Below, in pieces: positions 23,685-41,192 of a DNA stretch of 48,493 bases; within the stretch, counting starts at the first letter, position 1, and each line of letters starts with the position of its first letter. Position numbers and translations under genes: made by a program. The stretch comes from Klebsiella phage vB_Kp3. The DNA is taken from the sequence record KT367887.1. One strand, given 5' to 3'. The notes under the pieces are model-generated. The model did no database searches. It saw only the letters and a program-made list of their open reading frames with translations, and had not been told where the DNA came from.

Positions 23685-26527
23685 GTGAAAACACAGAACG
23701 CTTGATCGTCGACGTCGACGCCAGCGGGGTCAACGCGGGGGCCAAATCCCTCGCAGACCTTGTTGACGCGGCGCAGGACGCAGGCAGGGCAGCGGACGGG
23801 CTGGGCGACAAGTTCGACCAGGTGAAGCCGTCAGCCGACTCAGCAGCCGCAGCGGTCGACAACTTCAACAACGAGGCGAAGCAGACGCAGGAGGCGGCCG
23901 GGGATGCTGCTGTGGGCCTGTACCGGCAGAATCAGGAGCTTCAAAACCTCCTCGACCGCATCCGACCAACGCGCGTTCAGCTTCGTGACCTGGCGCAGCA
24001 GCAGGAGGCACTGGCGAAGGCTCAGGCTAATGGCCTGCTGGGGGCGAAGGAGGCCGAGGAGTACAACGCTATCCTCGCCAACCGTGCCGGGATCATCGAC
24101 CGCAACGACGCTGCTATGCGCGGCCTGAATGTGACGTCTGAGAAGCAGAAGGCGCTACAGCAGGGATTAACCATCACTACCGGGCAATACCGCGCTGCTA
24201 TGGGTATGTTACCGGCGCAGATGACCGATATCGTCACCCAGCTGGCGGGTGGTCAGAATCCATTCCTGATCATGATCCAGCAGGGCGGGCAGATTAAAGA
24301 CTCGTTCGGCGGACTGGGCAACACCTTCCAGGCGCTTAAACAATTCATTTCCCCTTCCTTCCTCGGGCTGGCTGGCGCGACAGCAGCCATCGCTGCAATG
24401 GGTTATGCAGCCTACACCAGCGCAGACCAGGCCGATCGACTCGCGGCATCGGTGACGCTCATGGGTGGGGCAGGCTTTAAGTCAGCCGAAGAGCTGAACA
24501 GGGCCGCCGTCATGATCCAGAAGTCAACTGGCGACAGCATTAGCAGCATCACCGACCGGCTGATCGAGCTGAACAACAAGGGCACGATGACAGCCGACAT
24601 GATGGAGAAGGTGGCGATCTCAACGTCGAAGTTGTCAGATGCCGGGCTGGACGCTGGCGACGTCATGAAAGACTTCGATAACCTGGTGAAGAACCCGATC
24701 AAGTCTATCGCCGCGCTCAATGAGCAGTATGGTTTCATGACCGAAGCGCAGATGAAGCACCTAATCCAGACGCAGAAGGAGAAGGGTGAGCAGGCTGCTG
24801 CTGCCGAAGCGCTGGACATCTACACAACGGCCATGAATAAGCGGGCCGATGACGTGATCGAGAAGACTGATAACGTCGGTCAGGCATGGAAGACGCTGAA
24901 AACCGCCGCGTCGGATGTCTTTAACGATATGGGGATCGTGCTGCGCTCGTGGGGGAACCGCGCCGTCGATATTTTCAAGATGGTCAAGCTATCGATCGAC
25001 GACCTGCTGAACTATCTTGCGCAGATGGACAGCAAATTTACGCTGGGCGTTGCTGACCTGCTGGACAAGGTGCCGGGCGTTGATGGCCGTGGCGTTCTCC
25101 GGGCGATGGGGATCGACGTCGAAACCGTCGAGAAAAATGGCCGGGAGTCCATCGAGAAGGGCAAGCAGATCGCGAAGGAGTTCGCGGAGGTCAGCAAGCG
25201 GGCCTTTGAGAGTCAGGCAGACGCTGAGGCGCGGGCGCGCAACGCCAACGGTGCTACCGGCAGCGGTGCTACCGATGAGAAGAGCAGGGAAGCGGTCAGC
25301 AAGCTGGCGAATGAGTCAACGAAGCACAACAAGGAGAAGGCCGTCACCGTTGCGCAGGGTGATCGCATCCTTGAGCAGTATCAGGCGCAGGAGCTGGCAT
25401 TACGGGCGCAGATCAAGACGCTGAAAGACCGTAACGCCTTCGACGTCAACGCCTCCGAGCAGATGAAGAACTATCAGCTGTTGGTCGCGAAGATCTCCAT
25501 CCTTGAGGGCATCCGTGCTGACGCCAAAGGCCGGGCACTCACCAAGGACGAACAGTCACTTCTGGCGAGCAAAGAGGAGATTCTCGCGAAGGCCAAGACC
25601 GTCGGCCTGCTGGGCGATCAGGTCAAGCAGCTGGAGCGGCAGGCGCAGATCACCGATGAACTGACCCGCAGCGGCAATGACCTGTCTGTTCAGGTGGCGG
25701 CCATTAACGCCTCATGGGGTCTATCAGCCGATGAGGCTGCGCGGCTGCTGGAGAACATGCAGCGAGCGGCGGCCCTCCGGGACAAAGGCGCGACTCAGGA
25801 GCAAATCGACGAGGACGCACGCCAGCGTGAAGCGCTGCGGCAGGCTACCGACGCGAAAACGCAGGACTGGGCAGGCGGCGCACGCTCAGCGATCGAAGCG
25901 TGGGGTAAGGATGCCACCAACACCTCAGCCAACGTGCAGAAGGCCGTCACGGGCGCAATGGACGCCGGTCTGGACTCGATCAACTCCTTCGTGATGACCG
26001 GTAAGGCGTCGTTCGCCGACTTTACCAAGTCAATCCTTGGGATGATGGTTCAGATGATCAACAAATGGCTCATGTTCAAAGCCATCCAGGGGATCGGCGG
26101 CGCGATGGGCTTCGATATGTCCAGCATCGGATTCAATGCGAAGGGTGGCGTATACGACAGCCCGTCTCTGTCTGCGTACAGCAACCGCGTCTACACCACG
26201 CCGCAGCTGTTCACGTATGACAAGCCGAAGCCGTTTGCGAAGGGCGGGGTGTTCGCCGAAGCCGGGCCGGAAGCCATCATGCCACTGGCGAAGGATTCCA
26301 GCGGGCGTCTTGGTGTTCGTGCTCAGGGCGGCGCTGGTGGCGGCGTCTCCATCGGGTCGATGGAAGTGAATGTCGACCAGAACGGGCAGGCGACGGCCAA
26401 CGTGTCAGAGTCTGGCAAGCTGGGCCGAGCCTACGGTGATGCAATGGCCGCAGCCATTCAGGACGGCATCGCCCGGGCAAGCTCCCCGGGTGGACAGATC
26501 TGGATGCTTATTAACGGTCACGCGTGA
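23681..26527 (+). CDS. Tail tape measure protein (948 aa)
   Basis: Long helical Ala/Gln-rich protein in canonical position. Confidence 0.85.
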   Translation: MSENTERLIVDVDASGVNAGAKSLADLVDAAQDAGRAADGLGDKFDQVKPSADSAAAAVDNFNNEAKQTQEAAGDAAVGLYRQNQELQNLLDRIRPTRVQLRDLAQQQEALAKAQANGLLGAKEAEEYNAILANRAGIIDRNDAAMRGLNVTSEKQKALQQGLTITTGQYRAAMGMLPAQMTDIVTQLAGGQNPFLIMIQQGGQIKDSFGGLGNTFQALKQFISPSFLGLAGATAAIAAMGYAAYTSADQADRLAASVTLMGGAGFKSAEELNRAAVMIQKSTGDSISSITDRLIELNNKGTMTADMMEKVAISTSKLSDAGLDAGDVMKDFDNLVKNPIKSIAALNEQYGFMTEAQMKHLIQTQKEKGEQAAAAEALDIYTTAMNKRADDVIEKTDNVGQAWKTLKTAASDVFNDMGIVLRSWGNRAVDIFKMVKLSIDDLLNYLAQMDSKFTLGVADLLDKVPGVDGRGVLRAMGIDVETVEKNGRESIEKGKQIAKEFAEVSKRAFESQADAEARARNANGATGSGATDEKSREAVSKLANESTKHNKEKAVTVAQGDRILEQYQAQELALRAQIKTLKDRNAFDVNASEQMKNYQLLVAKISILEGIRADAKGRALTKDEQSLLASKEEILAKAKTVGLLGDQVKQLERQAQITDELTRSGNDLSVQVAAINASWGLSADEAARLLENMQRAAALRDKGATQEQIDEDARQREALRQATDAKTQDWAGGARSAIEAWGKDATNTSANVQKAVTGAMDAGLDSINSFVMTGKASFADFTKSILGMMVQMINKWLMFKAIQGIGGAMGFDMSSIGFNAKGGVYDSPSLSAYSNRVYTTPQLFTYDKPKPFAKGGVFAEAGPEAIMPLAKDSSGRLGVRAQGGAGGGVSIGSMEVNVDQNGQATANVSESGKLGRAYGDAMAAAIQDGIARASSPGGQIWMLINGHA

Positions 26528-26535
26528 TAACCTAC

Positions 26536-26561
26536 AGCCTCCCACACAGGAGGCTTTTTTT
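26536..26561 (+). terminator. Terminator-like hairpin AGCCTCC-CACACA-GGAGGCT + 7 Ts; descending stem contains the SD (GGAGG) of the next gene whose ATG follows the U-tract
   Basis: Seen directly in sequence. Confidence 0.5.
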
Positions 26562-26924
26562 ATGGCTACATTAGACGCGTGGATCTGGCCGCTGGCGGCA
26601 GGTCAACAGGTATCAGTGAAAGACCGCAGCCGGTCGAACAGCTTCGGCGACGGCTCGCAGCAAAGCGTTTTGGAAGGCATCAACCCGTTCATTATGGAGG
26701 TGCCCTGCTCGTGGACTGGCAACGCTAAGACCGGCAACCAGATCCTATCCTTCCTGAAAGCGCACATCACCAACCCGTTCCAGATGGTTCCGCCGCATGG
26801 CGAACTGGGCCTTTACACCGTGAAATCAGGCACGATCAAATATGTCGCGCTGGGACGTGCAACCATGAACATTACCTTCACAGCCGAGCAGGCCGTGGGC
26901 ATCTACACAGGGGTGAAAGGATGA
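26562..26924 (+). CDS. Minor tail protein M (lambda gpM-like)
   Basis: FGDGSQQS... resembles lambda M (FGDGYSQR); 120 aa; position. Confidence 0.7.
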   Translation: MATLDAWIWPLAAGQQVSVKDRSRSNSFGDGSQQSVLEGINPFIMEVPCSWTGNAKTGNQILSFLKAHITNPFQMVPPHGELGLYTVKSGTIKYVALGRATMNITFTAEQAVGIYTGVKG

Positions 26925-28186
26925 GCAACACCATTTTCGACGAAGCCACAAAGCTCGACCCGTCTGGCAAGATCATCCTCATGGAGATCGACGGAACCGA
27001 GTTCGGCGCGGGGATCATCCGGGGCCACTATTGCCAGCTCCCGCACACGAGCAAGGAGATCCTCGACAGTGCGAACAGCACGTTAACCCGCGATCAGCTG
27101 TTCAAGTGCTATGGCGGACGCGGGACGGTGACGAAGAACGAAGACCGGAACACAATCAACTTCAAATCGTCAGCAGCTGACGCGAACCTGCTGCTGCCTT
27201 CGTTCACCGGCGGCCTGACTGGTAGCAAATATCAGGTGATCGAGGTGGTGGGTCGCTGGATCACTCCTCCTTCCGGGTCGGATAACCTGTATACGATCTA
27301 TTACAAGACCGCAGCGCATGATTTTTCCCCCAGCTACAACAAGGGCGGGTCGTTGGCGAGCGTAACCGAAGATCTTGGTGATGGCTGGCTGAAATTCTCG
27401 TTCGACATGTCGAAGCTGAGCGCTGGCGGTTCAGACTGGGTAAACAGCCAGATTATCGGCATCCGCATTGACCTGTGGCAGCAGGCGGTCGGCGAGATCG
27501 AGATCAAGCGAATCAGCATCCTGAACAAGAACCCGCACGAGGTTGACGCGTCCAAGCTGGCACCGAAGTCAATCTGGTTCGACAACGTCGAATATGGCTA
27601 TTGGCCGTTTATGGCTGAGGGGATCGAGTTCAGCAGCGAGCAGCAGGGGACGCCTACCCTGTCCATTGGCAACCAGTCGGGGGTCGTCAGCGCCTACCTG
27701 CGCGCCTATCAGCAGATGGTAGGGGCAAAGGTCAAGATCATCCAGACCTACGCGAAGTTTCTCGATCCGCGCAACTTCACCGATGGAAACGAGTTCGCCG
27801 ACTCAATGCAGCAGTGGACGCAGCTTTACTACATCGATCGGCCAGACTATGAGAGTGAAGAGTATGTGCGGTTCGCGCTGTCGTCTCCGCTCGACTTACA
27901 GAACTTTCAGGTGCCAACGCGGCAGATCACGACGTTCTGTCAGTGGCAGGCCCGCGGGCTTTACGGAAAAGGCCTGGACGCCGGGGAAGAAAACGGGTGC
28001 AGCTGGAACCGCGGCACGGCCTCGAAGTGGTACGACAAGCACGGGAACCAGGTGGACGACATCACGAAGGATGAGTGCGGTGGGTGCATTCAGGATTGCC
28101 GCCTACGCTTTGGCCAGCTGGTGAGTGACCCAAAAGCGGCCGTTCTGGACTACGGCGGTTTTATCTCTGTGCGCCTGATTGATTAA
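26921..28186 (+). CDS. Minor tail protein L (lambda gpL-like) with roughly 190-aa internal insertion
   Basis: C-terminus DITKDECGGCIQDCRLRFGQ matches lambda L DITKDKCSKCLSGCKFRN (Fe-S cysteine cluster); 421 vs 232 aa. Confidence 0.75.
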   Translation: MSNTIFDEATKLDPSGKIILMEIDGTEFGAGIIRGHYCQLPHTSKEILDSANSTLTRDQLFKCYGGRGTVTKNEDRNTINFKSSAADANLLLPSFTGGLTGSKYQVIEVVGRWITPPSGSDNLYTIYYKTAAHDFSPSYNKGGSLASVTEDLGDGWLKFSFDMSKLSAGGSDWVNSQIIGIRIDLWQQAVGEIEIKRISILNKNPHEVDASKLAPKSIWFDNVEYGYWPFMAEGIEFSSEQQGTPTLSIGNQSGVVSAYLRAYQQMVGAKVKIIQTYAKFLDPRNFTDGNEFADSMQQWTQLYYIDRPDYESEEYVRFALSSPLDLQNFQVPTRQITTFCQWQARGLYGKGLDAGEENGCSWNRGTASKWYDKHGNQVDDITKDECGGCIQDCRLRFGQLVSDPKAAVLDYGGFISVRLID

Positions 28187-28432: not shown

Positions 28433-28486
28433 CAGCATTGTAAATCAATGGTTTAAAATTTCAGGTGGTGCCAAGTGGAGGCAAAA

Positions 28487-29236
28487 ATGATTGACGTAAA
28501 TGACATCCCGGAACAGCAATTAACCTATATTAAACAACACCTTACAGAGTGTTCGCCGCAAGAGGGCTGCGGGCTGCTGGTGAATTCAGGCGGAGGCCTC
28601 GAATACTGGCCTGTCATCAACTCAGCAGCCGACAAAATGAACAGTTTTCGCATTGCACCGCAGGACTTCGCTGAGGCTGAGGACGCAGGCAATATCGTTG
28701 CCGTCATCCATTCACACCCTGGCGCTGACGGTCTGGCTTATCCGTCCATCCTCGATCGCCAGCTCATGCAGGAAACTTGCTTACCGTGGTTCATCTACGC
28801 CCCGGACAAGGATGAGCTGGCCGTGTTCTTTGAGGAGCCGAAGGGGCTGCTGGGTCGTGACTTTGTGCTGGGCGCTACCGACTGCTATGGCCTGGTGATG
28901 GCGTGGCACCGTTCGCGAGGCATTCAGCTCCCTGACTTCCGCAAGCCGTACCCGTGGTGGGAGAAGGGTGAGGAGCTTTTCACGGATGAGAATTTTTCAG
29001 CAGCGGGATTTATCAAGAAGGCCGAGGCAGAGCCGGGCGACATGGTGGTGTTCCGTATCGCGTCCAGCGTAAGCAATCACTGCGGGATCTACACCGGCGA
29101 CGGGATGATTATGCACCACCTCATGAACCGCAAATCGACCATTGATAGGATGTATGGCACCTACCTTGAGCCGCGCATTACTGGTATTCTCCGACATGAG
29201 TTACTACCGGAGATCACACCATGGGAAACCAGCTAA
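28487..29236 (+). CDS. Tail tip assembly protein K (JAMM/MPN + NlpC/P60)
   Basis: HSHPGADGLAYPSILD JAMM-like motif and TDCYGLV NlpC/P60 Cys motif; SD GGAGG. Confidence 0.8.
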   Translation: MIDVNDIPEQQLTYIKQHLTECSPQEGCGLLVNSGGGLEYWPVINSAADKMNSFRIAPQDFAEAEDAGNIVAVIHSHPGADGLAYPSILDRQLMQETCLPWFIYAPDKDELAVFFEEPKGLLGRDFVLGATDCYGLVMAWHRSRGIQLPDFRKPYPWWEKGEELFTDENFSAAGFIKKAEAEPGDMVVFRIASSVSNHCGIYTGDGMIMHHLMNRKSTIDRMYGTYLEPRITGILRHELLPEITPWETS

Positions 29237-29820
29237 GCACCATCCGACTGTACGGCGAAATGGGGGCGCGCTTCGGGCGCGTCCATCACCTCGCGGTCGA
29301 CTCCTGCGCCGAAGCAATCAGCGCCCTTTCCGCCATCATCCCCGGATTCGATCAATACATGCGAGACAGCCAGTCTCGCGGCCTGACCTTCGCCCCTTTC
29401 ATCGGAAAGCGGAACATCGGCTTCAATGAGATGTCGCAGCCAATCCCTGACGGCGAAGAATTCCGCATTGCCCCGATCATCATCGGCAACAAGAAGGGCG
29501 GCCTGTTCCAGACCATCCTGGGCGCTGCGATGATTGTCGCGGGCGTCGTGGCGTCGTTCATCCCCGGCGGGCAGGCTGTCTCCCCTTACCTCGTTGCTGC
29601 TGGTATCTCCACGGCTGCTGGCGGGGTTATGCAGATGCTTTCCCCGCAGGCGACAGGCATGAAGATCCGGGAGAATGACGCCAACGCGCCGTCATACGCC
29701 TTCGGCCAGCCGGTTAACACGACAGCACAAGGTAACATCGTTGGCGTTTTGTATGGCGAGCGTGAGATCGGGGGTGCTATCATCAGCGCCGGAATTATCG
29801 CTAACGAGGTACGTTCTTAA
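29221..29820 (+). CDS. Tail tip assembly protein I
   Basis: N-terminus resembles lambda gpI (LYGEMGARFGRVHHLAVDSCAEAISALSAIIPGF). Confidence 0.7.
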   Translation: MGNQLSTIRLYGEMGARFGRVHHLAVDSCAEAISALSAIIPGFDQYMRDSQSRGLTFAPFIGKRNIGFNEMSQPIPDGEEFRIAPIIIGNKKGGLFQTILGAAMIVAGVVASFIPGGQAVSPYLVAAGISTAAGGVMQMLSPQATGMKIRENDANAPSYAFGQPVNTTAQGNIVGVLYGEREIGGAIISAGIIANEVRS

Positions 29821-32800
29821 TGGAAATCAAAGGATACAAGGGCGGGAGTAGCAACGTGCATACCCCCGTTGAAGATCCAGACTCCCTGATCAGCAACGCA
29901 ACGGTAAGGATGCTCCTGGCGTTGTCAGAGGGTGAAACCGTGCCGATTAGCGCGGAAGACCTGCCCAAGCGCGTTTACATGGACGGGACGCCCGTTCAGA
30001 ACGATGATGGGTCGGTAAACATTCCGGGCGTAACACTGGAATATCGCAACGGCACCCCGCAGCAGGAGCCGATCAACGGCTTCCCGGCGGTGGAAAGTGA
30101 AACACGAATCAATGTGGAGCTGAAAAAGTCTTCTGCATGGGTGCGTAACATCACCAACACCGAGATCGACGCCGTCCGCATCCGAATGAATTTCCGGCTG
30201 GTCATCCAGCAGAAGGACGGGGATCGCGTAGGCGGACGCATTGAGTACCGGATTGAATACCGCAAAGTCGGCGACAGCACCTACACCGTGGCCTTCAATG
30301 GTGCTGTCGACGGCAAGCAGAAAGACAACTATGAACGCGATCACCGCATCGACCTGCCGAAGAGCAGCACTGGCTGGCAAATCCGCGTGACCCGCCTAAC
30401 TGACGACAGCACGTCTGATACCACCGTGCTCAACTCCGGGATCGTGGCTGTCACCGAGATCGTCGACGCCCGCGTTCGTTACCCGTGGACGTCCCTTCTG
30501 TTCGTCAGCTTCGACGCCAAATCGTTCCAGAACATCCCGAAAATCAGCATCAAGATGGGCGGCCGTCTGGTACTGGTTCCGTCCAACTATGACCCTGTTA
30601 ACCACACCTACAGCGGGTCGTGGAACGGGACATTTAAACAGGCGTGGACGGATAACCCGGCGTGGATCGTCTACGACATCATTCTGCACAAGCGCTTCGG
30701 TATTGGCCGCCGTATCCCGTCCTCATTCCTGAACAAATGGACGATGTACAGCATCGCACAGCGCTGCGATGAGCTGGTGACGAACGCCGACGGCACGCAG
30801 AATCGCCGTTACACCTGTAACGTGTATATCCAGAAACGCGCGCATGCGTGGAGCGTCATTCGTGACCTGGCGTCGATCTTTAACGGAATGGTCAGCTACA
30901 GCAACATGCAGCTTCAATTTGCGCAGGATGCACCGGCAGAAGTCCGCCATGTTGTGACAAACGACGACGTCGTGAACGGAACGTTCGAGTATTCCTACGG
31001 CAGCATGGCTAACCGCCGCGGGATCGCGATGGTCACTTTTGACGACCCGAAGGCGCACTATAAGACGCAGACCACTGTGGCGCAGATCAAAGACCTCGTG
31101 GAGCGTTATGGCGTTGAGCCGCTGGAAGTGTCCGGCATCGGCTGCACGGACGAATACGAAGCGCAACGTCGTGGCCTGTGGGCGCTGCTGTCGAACACCA
31201 ACGACATGCAGATCAGCTACCGCGTCGGCCTGAACGGCATCAAGTACCTGATCGGCGACGTCGTCGGCATCGCTAACCGCTACGTGCAGGGCGGTCAGTT
31301 CGGCGGGCGTGTTGCTGGCGTATCCGGCACCACCATCACCACCGACCGCATGATCTCCGACCACGTGGCAATCGGCGACAGAGTGATCGTTCGTCAAGCT
31401 GGATCGGATGGAACCTACAACCGCGTGATCAATGCAATCGCGGCTGACCGGATGTCCTTCACCGTCGACGGCACTAACCTTGATATTCAGAGCGGTGAAG
31501 TGTTCCTGCTGGATACTAAGGTGCTGGCACCTGAACTAATCCGCATCACCAAGATCACCTACAACGAGCAGGACAATAATTTCACCGTTACCGGTCTGCA
31601 ATACAGCCACTCGAAGTATTTGCAGGTTGACACCGGCGCGCGAATTGAAGACCGCCCGACATCGCTGATCCCGACCGGGCAGGTACAGGCACCCGCTAAC
31701 GTGGTGGCCGAAGGCTACAGTATCGTTAACCAGGGGATTCGCTCAGCTAACGTAAACTGTTCATGGTTCACCGTAGATCAGGCCGTCAGCTACGACATTC
31801 AGGTGCGCCGAACCTCTCAGTCAAACGGCCAGTGGTCACAGGGGTGGACTAACCTTGCCAGCCAGTCAAGCACGTCCGTTGACCTGACAAACGTTCTGAC
31901 CGGCACCTATCAGTTCCGCGTTCGTTCCGTATCCCGTGACGGCGGTTCGTCTCAGTGGGTCGAGTCGAATCAGGTGTTCGTTGACGGCAAGCGTGGCAGC
32001 ATCCCGGCAGTAGCTGGCCTGAACGGCGTAGGCATCGTTAACGGCATTACCTGGCGTTGGGTGACTGGCACGGATGATCTGATCGATATGAAGTCGACAG
32101 AGCTACAGTTCCAGCGCATTGACGGCAATGGTGCTCCGGTTGGTGATTGGATCGATCTCAGCGTCGTGACCTACCCTACCGGGACGTTCACACAGTCCGG
32201 CCTGAAATTTGCCGAACGCGTGCAGGTGCGCGCCCGCTTTGTGTCGTCATATAGCGATGCTGGCGAGTGGAGCGCCCCGGTCATGGCGATGACGTCCGAC
32301 AACATGGACGACTATTACCAGAACATCGACGACGCGATCAAAGGCTCCGACACCTACGGCGAACTTACCAGCGGCATCAAAGACGTAAGCGACAGCGCAC
32401 AGGCAGCGAAAGACGCCGCGCAGGCCGCGCAGGTTACTGCTGACGGAGCAGTGACAACCAACCAGCAGCAGCAGCAGCAGCTGAACAACCAGCTGGCCGA
32501 GATCCAGAAGAACGCGCAGGACATCACCAACACCGCTAACGCGGGGGCGGCAAACGCCAGTGCAATCGCTCAGGAGATCCTTGATCGCAAGGCTGGCGAC
32601 ATCGCGAACGCCAACAAGGCAGCTCAGGACGTGGCCGACGCTATCGCGAAGGCTGAGACGGATGACGCACAGGTGGCAGCTGACGCAGCGGCCAACCTGC
32701 TGACAGCGAAGAACGAAGTAGAAGCGCAGATCAGCACCACCAATACCACAATGCAGGACGGCTTCGACAGCCTGGCGCAGCAGATGGCATCCATTTCCGC

Positions 32801-35800
32801 TGGCACCGGCGAGCAGTTCGACAGCCTCGCTATCTGGTACTTCGACAACGGCCCGGAAGGGTGGGCTTCTGACGACGCCAACACCAATCTGCTCCCCGTA
32901 GACCAAGATGGCTGGATTTACCCTGCTGGCGCAGCATCCACCATGCGCTCACCTAACCCGCTGGCAATCGACGCGCGCAGCTATAAGTACATGCGCCTGC
33001 GCATGAAGCGAGTCGGGAACCCGTCATGGTCTGGCAGGCTGTATTGGATCGGCGTGGATGAGACTGGCTGGACAAGTGGCCGCTCAATTGCCATTCCGGC
33101 ACCTGACTTTGACCCGGCCACCGGGATCACTGTCCTGTCGATCCCCGATCTTCTGTGGGCGACATCCGGCACCGTGCGCCGCCTGCGCTTTGACTTCTCA
33201 AACAATCAGGACGCCAATAACTACTACGCCGTCGACTGGATGGCAGTAGGACGACCGACCCCGGGCGCGTCACAGGCACAGGTTCAGGATCTTCGCACCG
33301 CCATGACCGCGGCGGACTCAGCCGAAGCCGCAGCGCGCAACACACTGGCCGTTCAGCTCCGCGGGAACTATGAGGGAACCGACCCTTCCAAGCTGGTGAC
33401 TGGCATCATCTTCAACGAGCGCCAGACCCGCGTCACCGCAGAGCAGGCGATCGCCAGCGACGTCAACACCCTGCGCACTGACTACAACGCGAACAAGGCC
33501 GCCGTGACCCAGCGTCTCGACACGCTGACCAGCGAGAACCAATCGCAGGCGCAAGCGCTTACCCAGCTTCAAAGCGGTCTGACTGACGCTAACGGAAAGA
33601 TCGGCGCTAACGCTACAGCCATCAGCCAGATCAAAACAGACGTGACGGCGCTGGATGGTCGAGTATCGGCAAATAGCGGTCTGATCACTAACCTGCGCAG
33701 TGACCTGAATAACATGCGCGTCGGCGGCACCAACCTGATCCCTAACTCTGGCACGCTAGCAGGCGTCAGCGGCGTTGTGCAGGGTCAGACGTACAAAGGC
33801 AATGCTATCCGTCGCATCGCGATTGCAGCAGCCTCAGCCGGCTCCTACGACCAATTTGAGTATGAGCTTGCGGCTCCGATCGACGGAACCGAAGTAGTCG
33901 TCAGCTTCTACGCGAAAGCGAACAACGCCGACAGCAAGCAAATTTTCGTCTACCTGTACAACCCGAACGCCACGCTTACGGCTTTAAGTAGTCAGGGTAA
34001 AACTGGTAGCTGGGCTACTGGTGGCGATGGTTCGATGACAATCGACCTTACGGAAGACTGGGCGCGCTACTGGGTGAAATACACTCGTAAAAGCGGACAA
34101 ACTGGAAGCACCCGGGTCATCTTAGGCCGACTGCTGAAAGGGTCTAAGGACAAAGAGGTTTACATCAGCTCGCCTAAATTCGAATACGGCACCATGCCTA
34201 CCGAATGGAGCGAAGCACCGGCTGACAATGCCAGCGCAAGCGCGTTGCAGGCACTGACCACGCGTGTCACTGCGGCGGAAGGCACCATCAGCACCAACAG
34301 CCAGGCGATCACCCAGCTCAAAGGCGACGTGAGCACCTTACAGGGTCAGGTGGCTACCAAGGCCGAAGCGAGCGCATTGCAGCAGCTGGCGACTACTGTC
34401 ACCCAGCAGGGGAACACCATCTCTTCGCAGGGTCAGGCCATCACCGACTTGCAGAACACCGCGCAGAACGGTAAAGCGAACTACTGGCTGACCAAGATCT
34501 TCGATATCAAAGGGGGCGGTAGCGGGTACATTCCTAAGCTGTCCGACCTGTCTGGCGTTCCTCCGCTGGCCGTGTCCGAGATGGCTGACGCTGCAAAGCT
34601 GGACTTCCTGACTTACGGCGACTACAAAATCGCGTATGCGAAGGCGCTGGTGTATGTCGCGGCTGACAAGACAATCGCTATCACCCCCGGCTCCCGCATC
34701 GTGGACGACACCGGCCGACTGTATGTCAATGGGGTGGAAACGGCATCCTTTGGCGCCAGCACTGGCAACTACAGCCTGTCGCTAAAAAAAGGCTGGAACA
34801 CGCTTGAGTTCGTGGTTGCGCAGATCACCGGTCAGTTCTATATCAACTTTGGACTCAAGCTGTCCGATAACGTCGATCAGATGTTCAGTGGTGCCGGTCA
34901 GCTGGCCGCTGCATCCGCCTCGCAGGTGCTCTCCTCTCAGGTTGAGCAGACCTCCGGGAAGGTTGACGCGAACAGTGCCGCGATCGTCACTCTGAACAAC
35001 TCGGTGAGGGACATCAACACCGCGCTGAACAACAAGGCTGACGCGAGCGCGTTGCAGTCGCTGACTACCCGTGTCACCACCGCAGAAGGGAAGATCACGG
35101 CTCAGGGCAATGCAATTACCCAGCTCACCAGCGACCTGTCGACAGCGAACGGGAAGATCTCCGCTAACTCAACGGCGATCAATAACCTGACGACCCGGGT
35201 CAGCGCAGCCGAAGGGAAGATTGACTCACAGGCTGAGTCCATCACCTCGATCAACTCATCTATCAAGGGCGTACTGACCCAAGCGGCCAACCTTATCCCT
35301 AACCCGACGGTAGACCCGGCCTATTCGCAAATGGGCATGACCGTTGTTTCCACAACGTCAGAAGGCGTTCCGGCTGGATGCCCTTACCCGTGGGCGATTA
35401 AATGCCAGTACCGCGATCACGTCCCGGGTATGAACAACATCCCTTGTCGCGAAGGTCAGGTGTTTGAGTTCTCTGTACTGGCCGCATGCGGCACCGGCTC
35501 CGCACCGTTCCAGCACTACATCGGTACGTCGACTCTGGTTTCTGGCAGCATCGGGTCGCCACAAGCGAACGGAGGCCAAATCTCAGCGGCTACCGGCGCG
35601 CAGTGGACGCGCACTACATGGCGCTGGACAGTAAACGCGGAGCATGGGGCGAAGGGTTACTTCCGTCCATTCCTGCAAATCGCGCAGGCAGGCCCGGGCT
35701 ACGGGACAGTATGGTATGCAACTGACTGGAGCGTTCGCGACGTCACCGCAGCGGCGAAGGCAGAAGGCAAGGCAGACGCCAACGCCACGGCGATCAGTCA

Positions 35801-38800
35801 GCTGACAACCCGCGTTACTTCTGCGGAAGGGTCGATCACGTCTCAGGGTCAGGCCATTACCAAACTGACCAGCGATCTGAGTACGCTGACCGGCGTCGTG
35901 AACAATAAGGCTGACGCTTCGGCGCTGAATGCGCTCACTACCCGCGTATCGACTGCCGAAGGCAAGATCGATTCACAGGGTCAGTCGATCACCCAGCTGA
36001 GCAATAGCCTGTCCGCAACTGACGCCTCAATCGACGCGCAGGGCAAGATCCCCGGGAACCTGCTGGCTAACTCATCGTTTGAGCGCGGCCCGGTTAACTT
36101 CACCGGCTGGAGCAGCCTTGCCACCATCATCACGGCAACACAGCCGCATTCTGGCACCAAAATTGTCAAGATGGCGGCAGGCGGAAGTGCTGGAATCAGT
36201 CAGGCCGTTGAAATCACGCAGGGCCGCCGGTATCGCTTCGGCGTGTTTGCCAAACAGGACGCCGGGACTACCATCAACGATCCGGGTAACACGAAATTCC
36301 GTATCGCTGAGGAATCAGGCAGTCTTCTTGTCGGCACGAATTACGGCCCGTTCACTGGCACATGGCAGCACGTCTTCATGGACTGGACGGCTACGAAGAC
36401 CACCACCGCGCTGTTCCAGCTGACTACATGGCTGAGCGCTGGCGCGATGTACTTCGACGATGTCTACGTTGTCGACATCACCAACGACACCAAGATTCAG
36501 GCGAACGCTGACGCGATCACCTCGCTGAACACGAAAGTGACCCAGCAGGGTAACGACATCACGTCGCAGGGTAGCGCGATCACCCAGCTGACCAACCGCG
36601 TGCGCACTGAGCAGTACAGCAACAGCAACCCGTGGGTAGATGGCTCGTTCGAGTCGTATGACAACCAGCAAGCCATCGGTGGATCTAATGGCCTGGTCAC
36701 TACTGACTTCTCATTCAGTGGTCAGAAGTCGCTTATGTGTCGCCGCGCCAACGGTGAAACCGGCAACTCTGACAAGACTTTAGGGTATGAAACAGCCATT
36801 CGCGAGTCTGCGGTTTACCGCTTCGAATGCTGGGCGATGATGCCGGAAGATGAGACGCCGCCGGAAGGGTGGAACTGTGTTGTGGGCTTGATGGTTCGCA
36901 CCGCAGCCAACCAGAACGCATGGCCTAGCGCATTCGTCATCACAGAGTCAGGGCTTGCTGCTGGTGGCGGTCGTGGTAAGTGGGTCAAGTTCTCCGGCAA
37001 AGTAGGCGTAGGCGGCGGACAGAAGACACGAGGCCGTCTGTGGATCTCCACTCGCGGCACATCCGGCGGCCCTGGATATAGCATCTATATCGACGATCTG
37101 GTGATCACCGACGTTACCGACGCTCATGCAGCACAGACCACCGCAGACGCTAACTCAAGCGCGATCAACAGCCTGACCAGCCGTGTGAGCACCGCAGAAG
37201 GGCAGATCACATCTCAGGCAGACGCGATCACCAAGCTGAACGGTGACGTTAGCACCATCAACGGCACGCTGAGCCAGAAGGCTGACGCCAGCGCAGTCAC
37301 CGCACTGCAAACGCGCGTGACCACCGCAGAAGGCCAAATCGCGAGCAATGGCACGGCCATCACCAACCTGAATAACGGCCTGGAAGCACAGCGACGCACC
37401 GGTGAAAACCTCGTGCAGAACTATGACTTCATGCAAGGCGACACCGCATTCAGCGTGCAGCGGGATAGTTTCAGCACAGTAACGTTCGGCGACTACGGAG
37501 ATGGCAAGCCAGGCGTGCGCATGGTGAAAGTCAACGCCACATCGCCCGGCCTGTTCGCGAACAACAAAAAGCCGGTGCCGCAGAACGGCCAGCGCCGCTA
37601 TCGCTATGTTGTGCGCGCGAAGTCCGTAAGCGGTGGGAATAACCTTCTTATGCGTCGCTGGAATTTCAACGGCTCCGTAGAAGGCTCTTATACAGACAGG
37701 AACAACGCGCTTACAACTGACTGGCAGACCCTGACGTGGGAAACCGATCTCACCCCGGCAAGCGGATTTGACGGTTCAGCGTTCGGCCTGTATTGCCACC
37801 CGTCTAACGCGGAAGTGTGGATCGACTCGTTCAAGGTGTACGACATCACCGAAGAGCTGACGATCAAGGCTAACAGCGCGGCGATCAACAGCCTGACCAC
37901 CACCGTCACCCAGCAGGGCCAGGACATCACCGCGCAGTCGAACGCGCTCACGCAGCTGAAATCCAGCCTGACTAATGACGCGGTAGCGCTGGCAGCGAAC
38001 CCGGATAACATGCTGACGAACACCGGCTTCGAGCGTGGAACGGACAACTGGGTAGGATGGAGTTCACGCGCCGACGTCTACGCAGCACAAGAACCGAAGT
38101 CAGGCGCAATGATCCTGCGTGGTAAATCCGGCGGTAACGCGTCAATCGGTCAGAATGTTCTGAGCGTGAAAGCTGGCCGCACCTACCGGTTCGGCGGATA
38201 TGTGAAACGCACAGCTGATATGGCGATCGGCCCAAACACCGTAGGGAACAACAAATTCCGCCTTGGTAACGCGACCACCGGCGCTGGCCCTATTTCTGAG
38301 CTGAACTTCTCAGAAGCGAATATCGGCACTAGCTGGACGCTGATCACTAAGGACTTTGTCCCGACGTCTGATATTGACGTTGCCTATTCGATCAACTGGA
38401 ACCTTGCTACCGGTGAGATCTACTTTGATGACGTGTTCTTTATCGACGTCACCGACGAGATCAATAACGCGGCCAATGCTACAGCCATCAGCAACTTGAC
38501 CACCCGAGTTACTACGGCAGAGGGCAAAATCACGTCGCAGGGAACGGCGATCACTCAGCTGACCGCAGACCTCAGCACCGCGAACGGGAAGATCACGGCG
38601 AACTCCAACGCGATCACCAGCCTGCAATCGACTGTCACCCAGCAGGGCAATACGCTGACCTCTCAGGGCCAGGCGATTACCAAGCTGAATAGCGACCTGT
38701 CTGACCTGTCTGGCGTGGTGGACACGAAGGCCAGCGCTTCGGCACTGAATTCCCTGACTACCCGCGTCACCAATGCGGAAGGCAAGATCACCGCGAACAG

Positions 38801-39896
38801 CAACGCGCTGACCAGCCTGACTTCTCGCGTCGGCAATGCAGAGTCAGCGATCGATGGCCTGAACGAGACGACGGCGGCTAACGGTCTGGCGATGGCGAAC
38901 GGCTTCCAGCAACTGCGTGCGCAGATCGGCGACAACCAGGCAGCCATCACGCAGACGAGCCAGGCAATGGTGGATCTTGAGTCTTCAACGGCGCAGCAGA
39001 TCGGCACAATCAAGGCGTCAGTGGATGGTATGAGTTCCACCGTTCAGCAGACTTCAACGGCTGTTGCGGATATCAACGGCAAGCTGTCGGCGCAGTGGGG
39101 CGTCAAAGTTCAGACTGACACCGGAGGCGGAAACCCGCGCATTGCTGGTATTCAGCTGGGCATCGACGCGAGTGGTTCTTCGCAGTTCCTGGTTCAGGCT
39201 GACACCTTCGCGGTGTACGCTGGAGGCAGTAACAAGACGTTCCCGTTCGTTGTGCAGAACGGCGTGGCGTACATGCAGGAAGCGCTGATCCGCGATGGCT
39301 CGATCACCAACGCGAAGATCGGAAACGAAATCAAGTCGAACAACTTTGTCGATGGCTCTCAGGGCTGGCGCATCGGTAAAGATGGCAGCTCGCAGTTCAA
39401 TAACGTGATCGTTCGCGGCAGGGTTGAGGCGAATAGCGGTATTTTCAAGGGAACGGTGCAAGCTGAATCTTTTATCGGCGATATTGCTACTTCTGCATCG
39501 TTCAACGGATTTACTGTCAAGGGCGGTGAAGGTTCTGGCACTATGAACGCATGGTATCAGAACCGCGGGTATCCGATGACCATCACGCTGAACTGCACTG
39601 TACGATGCAATTCATACTCTGGCGGGGTAGGCGACCAAAGCCGTGACTTCTATGTGGTTCTGACATTCAACATTAACGGAGTGCAGAGCACGAGGCGCGT
39701 CGTTGTTGATATGCGGGATAAAGCACACGGCCTTGTGGATGTTCCGCAGTCGTTCACTGTTAACATTCCAGCAAGTAACGACCGAATCGGCATCTCGCTG
39801 ACTGGTGCAAGTTATGGGCCGCAGCAGAGTGAAGTCACAGTAAGCAATATTGTTGTGACGGCATTCCGAAGCAATAACGGTTCTTTTGGACAATAA
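29820..39896 (+). CDS. Giant central tail fibre / host specificity protein J (3358 aa). Lambda-J-like N-terminal 850 aa and C-terminal 300 aa, interrupted by about 2000 aa of coiled-coil repeats plus six CBM4/9-like domains
   Basis: N-terminal VPSNYDPVNHTYSGSWNGTFKQAWTDNPAWIVYDIILHKRFG and C-terminal SQFLVQADTFAVYAGG...AESFIGDIA align to lambda J; internal repeats and N(L/M)L(A/T)N(S/T)(S/G)FE(R)G...YFDDV...DIT modules. Confidence 0.9.
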   Translation: MEIKGYKGGSSNVHTPVEDPDSLISNATVRMLLALSEGETVPISAEDLPKRVYMDGTPVQNDDGSVNIPGVTLEYRNGTPQQEPINGFPAVESETRINVELKKSSAWVRNITNTEIDAVRIRMNFRLVIQQKDGDRVGGRIEYRIEYRKVGDSTYTVAFNGAVDGKQKDNYERDHRIDLPKSSTGWQIRVTRLTDDSTSDTTVLNSGIVAVTEIVDARVRYPWTSLLFVSFDAKSFQNIPKISIKMGGRLVLVPSNYDPVNHTYSGSWNGTFKQAWTDNPAWIVYDIILHKRFGIGRRIPSSFLNKWTMYSIAQRCDELVTNADGTQNRRYTCNVYIQKRAHAWSVIRDLASIFNGMVSYSNMQLQFAQDAPAEVRHVVTNDDVVNGTFEYSYGSMANRRGIAMVTFDDPKAHYKTQTTVAQIKDLVERYGVEPLEVSGIGCTDEYEAQRRGLWALLSNTNDMQISYRVGLNGIKYLIGDVVGIANRYVQGGQFGGRVAGVSGTTITTDRMISDHVAIGDRVIVRQAGSDGTYNRVINAIAADRMSFTVDGTNLDIQSGEVFLLDTKVLAPELIRITKITYNEQDNNFTVTGLQYSHSKYLQVDTGARIEDRPTSLIPTGQVQAPANVVAEGYSIVNQGIRSANVNCSWFTVDQAVSYDIQVRRTSQSNGQWSQGWTNLASQSSTSVDLTNVLTGTYQFRVRSVSRDGGSSQWVESNQVFVDGKRGSIPAVAGLNGVGIVNGITWRWVTGTDDLIDMKSTELQFQRIDGNGAPVGDWIDLSVVTYPTGTFTQSGLKFAERVQVRARFVSSYSDAGEWSAPVMAMTSDNMDDYYQNIDDAIKGSDTYGELTSGIKDVSDSAQAAKDAAQAAQVTADGAVTTNQQQQQQLNNQLAEIQKNAQDITNTANAGAANASAIAQEILDRKAGDIANANKAAQDVADAIAKAETDDAQVAADAAANLLTAKNEVEAQISTTNTTMQDGFDSLAQQMASISAGTGEQFDSLAIWYFDNGPEGWASDDANTNLLPVDQDGWIYPAGAASTMRSPNPLAIDARSYKYMRLRMKRVGNPSWSGRLYWIGVDETGWTSGRSIAIPAPDFDPATGITVLSIPDLLWATSGTVRRLRFDFSNNQDANNYYAVDWMAVGRPTPGASQAQVQDLRTAMTAADSAEAAARNTLAVQLRGNYEGTDPSKLVTGIIFNERQTRVTAEQAIASDVNTLRTDYNANKAAVTQRLDTLTSENQSQAQALTQLQSGLTDANGKIGANATAISQIKTDVTALDGRVSANSGLITNLRSDLNNMRVGGTNLIPNSGTLAGVSGVVQGQTYKGNAIRRIAIAAASAGSYDQFEYELAAPIDGTEVVVSFYAKANNADSKQIFVYLYNPNATLTALSSQGKTGSWATGGDGSMTIDLTEDWARYWVKYTRKSGQTGSTRVILGRLLKGSKDKEVYISSPKFEYGTMPTEWSEAPADNASASALQALTTRVTAAEGTISTNSQAITQLKGDVSTLQGQVATKAEASALQQLATTVTQQGNTISSQGQAITDLQNTAQNGKANYWLTKIFDIKGGGSGYIPKLSDLSGVPPLAVSEMADAAKLDFLTYGDYKIAYAKALVYVAADKTIAITPGSRIVDDTGRLYVNGVETASFGASTGNYSLSLKKGWNTLEFVVAQITGQFYINFGLKLSDNVDQMFSGAGQLAAASASQVLSSQVEQTSGKVDANSAAIVTLNNSVRDINTALNNKADASALQSLTTRVTTAEGKITAQGNAITQLTSDLSTANGKISANSTAINNLTTRVSAAEGKIDSQAESITSINSSIKGVLTQAANLIPNPTVDPAYSQMGMTVVSTTSEGVPAGCPYPWAIKCQYRDHVPGMNNIPCREGQVFEFSVLAACGTGSAPFQHYIGTSTLVSGSIGSPQANGGQISAATGAQWTRTTWRWTVNAEHGAKGYFRPFLQIAQAGPGYGTVWYATDWSVRDVTAAAKAEGKADANATAISQLTTRVTSAEGSITSQGQAITKLTSDLSTLTGVVNNKADASALNALTTRVSTAEGKIDSQGQSITQLSNSLSATDASIDAQGKIPGNLLANSSFERGPVNFTGWSSLATIITATQPHSGTKIVKMAAGGSAGISQAVEITQGRRYRFGVFAKQDAGTTINDPGNTKFRIAEESGSLLVGTNYGPFTGTWQHVFMDWTATKTTTALFQLTTWLSAGAMYFDDVYVVDITNDTKIQANADAITSLNTKVTQQGNDITSQGSAITQLTNRVRTEQYSNSNPWVDGSFESYDNQQAIGGSNGLVTTDFSFSGQKSLMCRRANGETGNSDKTLGYETAIRESAVYRFECWAMMPEDETPPEGWNCVVGLMVRTAANQNAWPSAFVITESGLAAGGGRGKWVKFSGKVGVGGGQKTRGRLWISTRGTSGGPGYSIYIDDLVITDVTDAHAAQTTADANSSAINSLTSRVSTAEGQITSQADAITKLNGDVSTINGTLSQKADASAVTALQTRVTTAEGQIASNGTAITNLNNGLEAQRRTGENLVQNYDFMQGDTAFSVQRDSFSTVTFGDYGDGKPGVRMVKVNATSPGLFANNKKPVPQNGQRRYRYVVRAKSVSGGNNLLMRRWNFNGSVEGSYTDRNNALTTDWQTLTWETDLTPASGFDGSAFGLYCHPSNAEVWIDSFKVYDITEELTIKANSAAINSLTTTVTQQGQDITAQSNALTQLKSSLTNDAVALAANPDNMLTNTGFERGTDNWVGWSSRADVYAAQEPKSGAMILRGKSGGNASIGQNVLSVKAGRTYRFGGYVKRTADMAIGPNTVGNNKFRLGNATTGAGPISELNFSEANIGTSWTLITKDFVPTSDIDVAYSINWNLATGEIYFDDVFFIDVTDEINNAANATAISNLTTRVTTAEGKITSQGTAITQLTADLSTANGKITANSNAITSLQSTVTQQGNTLTSQGQAITKLNSDLSDLSGVVDTKASASALNSLTTRVTNAEGKITANSNALTSLTSRVGNAESAIDGLNETTAANGLAMANGFQQLRAQIGDNQAAITQTSQAMVDLESSTAQQIGTIKASVDGMSSTVQQTSTAVADINGKLSAQWGVKVQTDTGGGNPRIAGIQLGIDASGSSQFLVQADTFAVYAGGSNKTFPFVVQNGVAYMQEALIRDGSITNAKIGNEIKSNNFVDGSQGWRIGKDGSSQFNNVIVRGRVEANSGIFKGTVQAESFIGDIATSASFNGFTVKGGEGSGTMNAWYQNRGYPMTITLNCTVRCNSYSGGVGDQSRDFYVVLTFNINGVQSTRRVVVDMRDKAHGLVDVPQSFTVNIPASNDRIGISLTGASYGPQQSEVTVSNIVVTAFRSNNGSFGQ
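34230..38880 (+). repeat. Family of in-frame tandem/interspersed repeats (unit about 111 bp / 37 aa, consensus ..ASALQ(A)LTTRV(T)(T)AEGKI(T)SQGQAIT(Q)L(T)SDLST..) alternating with roughly 450-bp CBM-like modules
   Basis: At least 14 recognisable copies, e.g. starting near 34230, 34340, 35040, 35150, 35780, 35890, 36490, 37150, 37260, 37870, 38480, 38590, 38700, 38770. Confidence 0.7.
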
Positions 39897-39923
39897 GGAG
39901 CGGCCCTTCGGGGCCGATATTAA

Positions 39924-41192
39924 ATGGCAAATATTAGCGACCAACTCGCGGCTGATATTCACAACGCATTCAGCAAATACTACACAGACCTCGCCAATCA
40001 GGATCAGATCTTCTTTGGCGTTGGTGACGTGCAGATCACCAAGCAGGACGGAACCACCGCAACCGTGCGTTCATGGAACAAGGTGATCGGCTCAGTGGAT
40101 ACCGCAGCACAACGCGGAGCTGCAAACACCTTCACGGCCCTGCAAACGTTCAGCGCCGGGATCAATGTCTCTGCCGGAAACATCAACGTGATGAACGACA
40201 ACAGCATGGTGATCCTCGGGAAAAACAGCGATCTTGCACTGCTGAAAAAATATGGTCAGGGCGGCACCATTGCCGTCGGCAGCGGCACGCCATTCAAGAT
40301 CCAGCGCACGAATACAGCAACTGTCTCACCGGCTTCTACGGTCGAGGATATTTTGACCATCGGCACGGATAAGAAAACCACCGTTGCCGGAGCGCTTGCC
40401 ACTGGCGGCGACATTGACAATGCTGCCAGCGGTAAGATGTATTCCCAGGCGATGGAACTGTCATTTAGCACGCCATACATCGACTTTCATTTTAACTACA
40501 GCACCGACGACTTCACCGGTCGGATTATAGCCACCGCCGCCGATCAAATTAGTGTGCAAGGTAGTCATTTGCGAGTTGACAGGGATCTTCGTGTTTTTGG
40601 CATGGCAGATATTAAAGGGTGGACGCAATGCGGAGTCGATCTATCGTCCAATAGAACAGACTTCGGTTCTCCTGCCAATGGTGCGTTGGTTTCCGGCGGG
40701 CGTATTCGATCCAGAATGCTTGGGCGCGGCGGTAACGTTGACCCATCCGGGGCGTGGGGCGGCTTCTATGTTGAAGAGTACGTGGGAACCGAGCACAGGA
40801 TTATCATGTATATGGACGGCTTCGGGAGAACAGACGCATGGTCATTCCGCTCAGGGGGGACAATCTCCACACCCAAAGGCGACGTTCTCACTACCGGTTC
40901 AGACGTGCGACTGAAAACAGACTTCACCCAAGCGCCTGAGAACGCCTCAGAGCGCATTGAACGCTTGGGGGTATGTGAGTACCGGTTGAAGGGAGAAACG
41001 CGCGTGAGGCGTGGTTTTATCGCACAGCAGGCGGAGACTGTAGACGAGGTCTACACCTATCAGGACGTCGAGCAGGAGATCGACGGCGAGAGGTTCCGGG
41101 TGATGAACGTGGACTATGTGGCAATCATCGCTGACCTGGTGGCGTCGGTGCAGGAGCTTCGGAAGGAATTGAGAGAGCTGAAAGGGGAATAA
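39924..41192 (+). CDS. Side tail fibre protein with C-terminal intramolecular chaperone (peptidase S74) domain
   Basis: C-terminal GSDVRLKTDFT...ERIERLGVCEYRLKGE...GFIAQQ motif characteristic of S74 autoproteolytic chaperone. Confidence 0.75.
   Translation: MANISDQLAADIHNAFSKYYTDLANQDQIFFGVGDVQITKQDGTTATVRSWNKVIGSVDTAAQRGAANTFTALQTFSAGINVSAGNINVMNDNSMVILGKNSDLALLKKYGQGGTIAVGSGTPFKIQRTNTATVSPASTVEDILTIGTDKKTTVAGALATGGDIDNAASGKMYSQAMELSFSTPYIDFHFNYSTDDFTGRIIATAADQISVQGSHLRVDRDLRVFGMADIKGWTQCGVDLSSNRTDFGSPANGALVSGGRIRSRMLGRGGNVDPSGAWGGFYVEEYVGTEHRIIMYMDGFGRTDAWSFRSGGTISTPKGDVLTTGSDVRLKTDFTQAPENASERIERLGVCEYRLKGETRVRRGFIAQQAETVDEVYTYQDVEQEIDGERFRVMNVDYVAIIADLVASVQELRKELRELKGE

Follow-up and report, generated by a model that had tools for sequence, protein, structure and literature searches.

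A 3358-residue J-like central tail fibre of Klebsiella phage vB_Kp3 with eight modules of lectin-type assignment on a coiled-coil-like stalk

Why would a phage with a lambda-type tail tip encode a tail-tip protein three times the size of lambda J, and what might the additional residues do? This question is raised by a gene of Klebsiella phage vB_Kp3 (sequence record KT367887.1), of which a stretch of 48,493 nucleotides (nt) was analysed (referred to as the window). The gene, located at 29820..39896 on the + strand, is a single open reading frame (ORF) of 3358 codons without internal stops, a threefold expansion compared with the 1132 amino acids (aa) of lambda J. An earlier interpretation made from the letters of this DNA alone (referred to as the sequence-only reading) had regarded it as one unsplit ORF for a J-like (TipJ-family) central tail fibre, and database searches agreed. 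Specifically, the whole protein scored 3674 bits against phrog_2589 ('tail protein', 3686 profile positions), and phrog_31 ('central tail fiber J') matched it with E = 1.9e-280. Megablast of the gene returned 56 phage records, all from siphophages of ca. 48 kb of Klebsiella or Enterobacter, with at least 80% of the gene being covered in 22 of them; the top record, vB_KpnS-MUC-5 (MUC-5), is 97.6% identical at the nt level over 100% of the gene and annotated as 'tail fiber protein'. Because the gene is kept as one intact ORF (encoding 2644-3391 aa) in all eight relatives that were fetched, a sequencing artefact or a split gene can be excluded.

As the sequence-only reading had claimed, both ends of the protein resemble lambda J. 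The first 849 residues (29820..32366, on the + strand like all features below) correspond to a lambda-J-like tail-tip hub with fibronectin type III (FNIII) domains. This region yielded a Pfam match to FNIII-A_GpJ (aa 91-217, 121.8 bits) and alignments with residues 4-699 of lambda J (aa 9-708, PDB 8iyk_J, E = 7.6e-84), with the solved 1148-aa J-like tail tip protein gp24 (aa 2-998, 23gd_D, E = 3.9e-203) and, in the PDB sequence search, with the F2-pyocin fibre (aa 3-837, 25vf_A). At the other end, a tail-tip fibre domain comprising the SQFLV...AESFIGDI region (aa 3091-3215, 39090..39464) was recognised by Pfam PF09327 (Phage_Tail_Tip/DUF1983, aa 3074-3207, 127.1 bits), and showed alignments with a C-terminal piece of lambda J (8xcj_Z) as well as with gp24 and the F2-pyocin fibre. 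Moreover, the last 480 residues matched residues 908-1197 of the F2-pyocin fibre in the PDB search (E = 1e-24). Among the eight relatives the hub is 92-99% identical and the tail-tip fibre domain 87-99% conserved. Since both ends are lambda-J-like, the J sequence appears to be split by an insert of ca. 2000 aa, and the gene, as judged from these similarities, almost certainly encodes a gpJ/TipJ homologue, the central fibre of a lambda-type tail tip.

The insert was found to consist of repeat-containing linkers alternating with beta-rich modules, as had been proposed. Mapping of aromatic content and motifs delimited eight globular modules of ca. 150-175 aa (M0 to M7) instead of the six counted earlier, M0 and M2 having been missed; the start and end motifs then ascribed to every module are present in only five (start) and four (end, M4-M7) of them. 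Scanning the whole protein against Pfam missed the carbohydrate-binding modules (CBMs) altogether, and a module-by-module scan found two: M4 (aa 2072-2224, 36033..36491) and M7 (aa 2724-2881, 37989..38462) matched CBM_4_9 (PF02018) at 33.7 bits (E = 5.7e-8) and 36.7 bits, respectively, for a gathering cutoff of 25.9 bits. These two are 35% identical and constitute the sole pair related by single-sequence BLASTP/hhalign; M7 also weakly resembles BppA domain 1 and scored 23.5 bits against CBM_4_9_1, under the cutoff of that family. The six other modules are themselves under the CBM_4_9 cutoff, and profiles built from 120 homologues were compared with hhalign (the homologue listing holds many partial sequences and no entry longer than ca. 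1750 aa, and full-length giants are not visible in it). This comparison united M3 to M7 as one superfamily, with M4-M7 at 100%, M5 (aa 2262-2436, 36603..37127) at 97.8% with M4 and 96.7% with M7, M6 (aa 2524-2680, 37389..37859) at 97.5% and 95.7%, and M3 (aa 1818-1980, 35271..35759) at 92.1% and 86.8%. A divergent homologue of M6 scored over the CBM_4_9 cutoff (26.3 bits) and one of M5 slightly below it (25.1 bits). M3, a divergent member placed here by profile evidence only, had no Pfam match at all, and neither had two of its divergent homologues.

The first three modules belong to other families, with hhalign values to M4/M7 of at most 11% for M1 and ca. 0% for M0 and M2; of the six modules for which the sequence-only reading claimed CBM4/9 likeness, M3 to M7 retain it. 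M0 (aa 990-1150, 32787..33269) is a homologue of the CBM11-like domain of Megatron from roseophage R4C, its profile matching residues 489-617 of 8gtc_M in the PDB (E = 2.7e-10); residues 482-629 of Megatron were named 'carbohydrate-binding' for their CtCBM11-like topology (PMC10276861). It is the most widespread module (101 of the 120 homologues) and the first recognised one in most relatives that have it. M1 (aa 1298-1470, 33711..34229), which ends in KFEYGTMPTEWSEAP, is predicted to be a CBM-type beta-jelly roll. Its AlphaFold2 model (pLDDT 77) was related by Foldseek to CBM16, CBM4 and CBM22, to Tuc2009 BppA, to fibres of Pa193 and E217 and to the central fibre of mycobacteriophage Douge (E = 3e-4 to 5e-3, TMq 0.45-0.53), and it weakly matched the sugar-binding protein 3see (E = 0.006). 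M2 (aa 1548-1695, 34461..34904) is PA14-like by fold only: its model, of moderate confidence, adopts the PA14 beta-sandwich, and Pfam returned no PA14 match at E <= 10, the sole hit being a weak Cadherin-like one. Some M2 homologues carry precomputed PF15711 (ILEI) matches. In the homologue alignment M2 has an invariant Asp-Asp pair (D82-D83, aa 1629-1630, 34704-34709). The Ca2+/sugar-binding site of PA14/Flo/Epa lectins is a DcisD Asp-Asp motif, which the M2 pair recalls, as a resemblance of sequence alone.

From profiles and models together, all eight modules receive a lectin-type assignment, as had been anticipated, through a lectin- or CBM-type fold or homology. They fall into at least four families: one Megatron CBM11-like module, one CBM-type jelly roll, one PA14-like module and five members of the CBM4/9 superfamily. 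Support for these assignments is unequal: M4 and M7 have strong, M0, M2, M5 and M6 good, and M1 and M3 moderate support. Neither a catalytic nor a depolymerase domain was detected anywhere in the protein by Pfam and PHROG scans.

A coiled-coil nature had been proposed for the stalk on which the modules are strung, and this was examined on the nine linker segments (L0 to L8, 953 aa summed). Occupancy of the heptad a/d positions was high in all nine, with z = 4.0-9.8 relative to composition-matched shuffles (300 for each segment, none of which reached the observed value), and no module was periodic (z = -2.9 to 1.1). L2 to L7 and L8 are almost free of proline and aromatic residues, and L1 has two prolines and three aromatics. 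The linker unit ..A[DN]A[ST]A[IL]xxLTTRVTxAEGKITSQGxAITxL.. repeats every 42-44 aa (126/132 nt), so the period of ca. 37 aa given by the sequence-only reading had to be corrected. The Ala/Gln-rich, heptad-periodic L0 (aa 850-989, 32367..32786; z = 5.2, 0/300 shuffles) has a counterpart in short (1148-aa) J-like proteins, the gp24 alignment extending to residue 998. The coiled-coil-like segments that follow are L1 (aa 1151-1297, 33270..33710; z = 4.9), L2 (aa 1471-1547, 34230..34460; two units of ca. 42 aa, z = 5.7, DNA repeat families D1/D2), L3 (aa 1696-1817, 34905..35270; a pair of 42-aa repeats, ..ALQSLTTRVTTAEGKITAQGNAITQLTSDLST.., z = 8.0, D1, D3 and D6), L4 (aa 1981-2071, 35760..36032; a 44-aa repeat pair, z = 6.4, D3 and D4), L5 (aa 2225-2261, 36492..36602; one unit, z = 4.0, the reference copy of D2), L6 (aa 2437-2523, 37128..37388; a 44-aa repeat pair, z = 6.6) and L7 (aa 2681-2723, 37860..37988; one unit, z = 4.4, D2). 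The terminal shaft, L8 (38463..39089; z = 9.8, D2, D4 and D6), matched the trimeric coiled coils of P22 gp26 (E = 1.6e-4) and reovirus sigma-1 in the PDB search and the tail needle profile phrog_1219, and DNA repeat analysis revealed that the internal linkers are paralogous to its proximal half. Fully extended, the shaft would measure ca. 140 nm (953 aa x 0.148 nm). The summed linkers (953 aa) compare with a tape measure protein of 948 aa, and the extended fibre would thus be about as long as the tail tube predicted from the latter, which may be a coincidence.

The eight relatives (MUC-5, Carter, Haden, EKq1, NewHawk, phiKp_14, K49PH164C2 and HJK1) were subsequently compared segment by segment. 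Linkers are mostly 78-100% identical among them, and the segments that are replaced (the M1, M6 and M7 slots and the C-terminal 143 aa) show 9-34% identity. Specifically, five of the eight have a non-homologous segment (16-20% identity) in the M1 slot, which is an M7-like CBM in four of these, and the M6 and M7 slots hold other module types in three phages. NewHawk (2644 aa) is devoid of M3-M5, with breakpoints in L3 (5′) and L6 (3′). Variation in module number, which the sequence-only reading had suggested looking for, therefore does occur, modules being deleted or replaced in proteins of 2644-3391 aa. The relatives also hold at least three extra module types that are absent from the window (such as aa 1295-1455 and 2515-2680 of the Haden_MM8 J protein), one of which, 'GDNLVPNPGML...SLYNPVVTRR', is found in Haden_MM8 and two other relatives; the pool of cassettes is therefore larger than the eight modules seen here. 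Klebsiella, Leclercia, Citrobacter and Stenotrophomonas prophages encode J-like proteins in which these modules recur, differently ordered. In the announcement of EKq1, carbohydrate-binding and tail-fibre genes were reported to be 78-89% identical at the nt level to K. variicola prophage genes (PMC10793312), suggesting that lytic phages and prophages undergo exchange. Frequent intragenic recombination in one genome, driven by near-identical repeats, was considered as well and dropped, the DNA repeats of the linkers being only 60-80% identical within the gene. At this level of identity self-recombination should be limited, while the repeats should still offer conserved in-frame junctions at which genomes could exchange segments.

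The distal C-terminal domain (143 aa, aa 3216-3358, 39465..39893) occupies the position of the receptor-binding end of lambda J. It is 99-100% identical in MUC-5, Carter and Haden and 19-34% identical in EKq1, NewHawk, phiKp_14, K49PH164C2 and HJK1, so that at least two unrelated alleles occur in phages with 92-99% identical hubs. This domain is probably the true terminal receptor-binding domain, exchanged independently of the CBM cassettes.

Proteins of this kind turned out to be neither rare nor undescribed. An exhaustive HMMER search with the hub yielded 5852 cluster representatives; among the best 150 of these, the median length is 1696 aa, 22 (ca. 15%) have at least 2500 aa, 16 at least 3000 aa and 8 at least 3358 aa, and the longest reaches 4797 aa with eleven recognised modules. 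Among the named giants, those of 3617-3744 aa come from K. pasteurii, K. oxytoca and K. variicola prophages and those of 3409-3425 aa from Acinetobacter baumannii and A. haemolyticus prophages; one more belongs to another Klebsiella phage. A search of IMG/VR for related loci with the hub retrieved three near-identical loci only. The class itself was described by Beamud et al. (2023, Cell Rep), who reported broad-range 'S8' Klebsiella siphophages (VLCpiS8a/b/c) with a first receptor-binding protein (RBP) of 2309 or 3201 aa bearing 2-3 CBMs and a second RBP with an endosialidase-chaperone domain (PMC9989827). These phages showed no depolymerase fold, no haloes and low depolymerising activity, and their tropism was weakly tied to capsule type (PMC9989827); the absence of a depolymerase predicted by the sequence-only reading thus agrees with what was published for the group. 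EKq1, which is reported to be >98% identical to VLCpiS8c, is 81% identical at the nt level to the gene studied here, and because of this link the vB_Kp3 stretch can be placed in the S8 group. The protein indeed has all the characteristics of an S8 giant RBP (more than 1500 aa, CBMs, a chaperone-type RBP next to it, no depolymerase, and the lineage). Membership of Webervirus, which a KP 1513 host among the hits had brought to mind, was rejected, as the relatives are unclassified Caudoviricetes that are kept separate from Webervirus in published cocktail tables; a 2026 mBio paper on Webervirus RBPs leaves the central fibre unmentioned. An experimental-evolution preprint with K34PH164 holds no data on the J gene, the phage having been lost in all lineages. 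The adsorption apparatus was therefore overstated as 'unusually elaborate': giants of 2500-4797 aa built to the same plan make up ca. 15% of the best 150 hub representatives, and the RBP pair had already been published. The protein is not unusual, its class and main features having appeared in 2023 and near-identical genes having been deposited, and the idea of CBMs taking the place of a depolymerase is also in print (PMC9989827). What the present analysis adds is a full map of the modules, the recognition that J is split and has a heptad stalk, and the pattern in which cassettes are exchanged.

On the basis of size alone, Beamud et al. suggested a polyprotein (PMC9989827), in which case the 3358-aa product would be cleaved into a J of standard size and separate soluble or virion-associated carbohydrate-binding proteins. 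A gpK-like protein of the JAB/NlpC-P60 protease type is encoded just upstream, in keeping with such a scheme. However, the J sequence is split, with the hub N-terminal and the tip-fibre domain C-terminal of the insert, and removal of the insert by cleavage would leave hub and tip unconnected. Moreover, the heptad register reaches right to each module, Pfam finds no peptidase or autocleavage domain inside the protein, and the end-to-end plan is identical in Klebsiella and Acinetobacter giants. Such cleavage is thus highly improbable.

Taken together, sequence, models and analogy with related fibres make it somewhat probable that the protein serves multivalent, non-enzymatic glycan adhesion along a trimeric stalk, with a receptor-binding tip at its end. 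Like lambda J and the pyocin fibres, the protein would form a trimer, which would display ca. 24 domains of sugar-binding type per virion on a parallel coiled-coil shaft. The modules would make weak, multivalent and non-catalytic contacts with surface polysaccharide (capsule and/or O-antigen), and these contacts might hold the virion and steer it across the glycan layer. Next, a terminal outer-membrane receptor would be bound by the variable C-terminal domain, which would trigger ejection as in lambda. Exchange of cassettes at the conserved linkers, in which Klebsiella prophages would also take part, might diversify the host range.

Several points weigh against this adhesion model. Similarity to a CBM fold is no proof of sugar binding, six of the eight modules are themselves below Pfam thresholds, and the models of M1 and M2 are moderate only (pLDDT 77-79, TM ca. 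0.5). The trimeric state and the parallel register are presumed from homologues. Clearer spots were obtained on acapsular mutants in four of six combinations, and in the view of Beamud et al. entry may not depend on the binding of capsular carbohydrates (PMC9989827). As for host range, PMBT64 is restricted to K3 strains, and vB_KleS-HSE3 infected one of four K. pneumoniae strains (PMC7232175). The latter phage was, besides K. pneumoniae, also reported to lyse a Yersinia pseudotuberculosis strain (PMC7232175). Finally, no long distal fibre was reported in negative-stain electron microscopy of relatives; hence the stalk may have been folded or may just have escaped detection, and the published micrographs speak directly neither for nor against a long fibre.

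The modules could alternatively be mainly architectural, providing docking sites for the S74 side fibres or other tip proteins, or knobs that stabilise the shaft, with host recognition being left to the C-terminal domain and the side fibre only. Side fibres of the F2 pyocin do attach to the central shaft, the 422-aa side fibre has no recognisable attachment partner, and M0 is nearly universal and usually the first recognised module, which would suit a structural adaptor; variation among relatives furthermore affects both the C-terminal domain and the side fibre. This role is nevertheless unlikely: diversifying ligand recognition fits better with eight modules from four lectin-type families that are swapped and vary in number in near-identical phages, M4 and M7 are genuine CBM_4_9 domains, and the invariant DD pair of M2 recalls PA14 lectins. 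Binding of the modules to environmental glycans such as gut mucins or biofilm matrix, in the style of 'bacteriophage adherence to mucus', can also be envisaged for phages from sewage and gut-associated hosts, and for another Klebsiella phage, PMBT63, such a role is discussed for its Hoc-like protein. However, the modules sit on the host-recognition organelle and not on the capsid, co-vary with host-range determinants and are exchanged with J genes that prophages of their host genus carry, which leaves environmental binding with hardly any likelihood.

An elaboration of the adhesion model concerns the linkers, which might be serial elements that turn from a coiled coil into a beta-prism, so that the stalk would be a lectin-studded, spring-loaded tether (ca. 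140 nm). According to a 2026 preprint, the coiled coil of the F7 pyocin central fibre (163 residues) becomes a beta-prism on receptor binding, and the same switch, with an SxSxxMxxLxS signature, is predicted for many siphophage fibres (PMC12874032). The protein studied here combines two features of this class, C-terminal homology to an F-pyocin fibre and a coiled coil of high propensity (L8, z = 9.8), and a series of such elements is conceivable because L8 and the pyocin shaft are homologues and L8 has paralogues in the internal linkers. The SxSxxMxxLxS motif occurs 39 times in the 953 linker residues with a forward-orientation bias of 27:12, and L1 has 11 occurrences for 1.4 expected. Because enrichment over shuffles is significant in four of the nine linkers only (L1, L2, L7 and L8), serial switching stays speculative, and we regard it as improbable. 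If true, capsule or O-antigen would be gripped by the CBMs and the receptor by the tip; the stalk would become ca. threefold shorter, one switch at a time, and the tail tip would be reeled in across the glycan layer as far as the outer membrane, no depolymerase being needed.

The J gene is the last one of a gpM-gpL-gpK-gpI-gpJ cassette located 3′ of the tape measure gene, as identified by Pfam for the four upstream genes. The tape measure corresponds to the 948-aa ORF at 23681-26527 of the window, by correspondence with the MUC-5 annotation. The cassette starts with a gpM-like minor tail protein (26370..26924, Pfam Phage_min_tail) and a gpL-like hub protein of 421 aa (26921..28186, Pfam Phage_tail_L at 214-419), followed by a gpK-like protein (28475..29236, JAB and NlpC/P60 in Pfam) and a gpI-like tail assembly protein (29221..29820, Pfam Lambda_tail_I). 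The start codon of J and the stop codon of the gpI-like gene share one base (TAATG, 29818-29822), an overlap that suggests translational coupling of the two tip genes. Antisense to the J gene (29925-39962, minus strand) there are many ORFs of 80-220 aa. Both the expanded gpL and the separate S74-type fibre noted by the sequence-only reading are present. The gpL-like protein has an N-terminal extension of ca. 200 aa relative to lambda L (232 aa), with PDB hub proteins aligning to residues 209-420 only. This extension (aa 1-213, 26921-27559) matched phrog_18 'minor tail protein', with no Pfam family and no solved structure being matched, and could be a further adhesion or fibre-docking domain. 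The second fibre (422 aa, 39924..41192) ends in a Peptidase_S74 intramolecular chaperone (PF13884 at 326-373) and matched phrog_1980 tail fiber; a PDB sequence search gave no solved homologue for it.

How does this fibre relate to known systems? The S8 first RBP, MUC-5 ORF025 and EKq1 CDS0024 stem from the same unclassified group of ca. 48-kb siphophages, and in contrast to the 2-3 CBMs and the polyprotein idea of the S8 paper, we describe eight modules of four families, a split J and a heptad stalk. The short solved relatives are lambda gpJ (8iyk_J, 1132 aa), gp24 (23gd_D, 1148 aa), 9l9p_S and the F2-pyocin fibre (25vf_A, 1204 aa). In these short J fibres the hub with its FNIII domains, the terminal alpha-helical shaft and the tip-fibre domain are homologous to those of the protein studied here, and the gene order M-L-K-I-J is that of lambda; they lack the insert of ca. 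2000 aa, with its eight modules and eight extra coiled-coil segments. Compared with lambda, the distal C-terminal domain is unrelated in sequence to the LamB-binding end, and only aa 3071-3227 align. Among Gram-positive siphophages, 'evolved' Dit/Tal proteins, Tuc2009 BppA and streptococcal Tal extensions have been described (Goulet et al. 2020, PMC7291167); these likewise place non-catalytic CBM/BppA jelly rolls on tail-tip proteins, where they serve to bind saccharides of the cell surface, with LEGO-like exchange (PMC7291167), and the M1 model matches gp20 of mycobacteriophage Douge. However, the Gram-positive systems have one or two CBMs in Dit/Tal loops or short extensions, whereas the fibre described here has eight modules along the coiled-coil shaft of a lambda-type J, for a Gram-negative host. 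Regarding the hubs of the R4C Megatron/RcGTA type, both proteins are tail-tip hub proteins and M0 is homologous to the Megatron domain, which is an excursion from a peripheral hub domain in Megatron and follows a 140-aa coiled-coil segment on the stalk here. With F7 pyocin, finally, the fibre has in common the C-terminal ca. 290 aa of an F-type fibre, including L8 (F2, E = 1e-24), and a shaft rich in small residues and SxSxxMxxLxS-type strings; F7 pyocin, however, has one switchable coil of 163 residues and no inserted modules.

For the biology of Klebsiella phages, these data bear on the limits that capsule-type specificity, resting on depolymerases, sets to phage therapy. The lineage of vB_Kp3 would follow a different, non-enzymatic strategy, and its exchangeable lectin cassettes may offer a natural scaffold for host-range engineering. 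The module map, with its eight modules of four families, linker breakpoints and allelic C-terminus, turns a vague 'tail protein' into testable parts, and phages and prophages of the encapsulated genera Klebsiella and Acinetobacter commonly carry giant J proteins built in this way.

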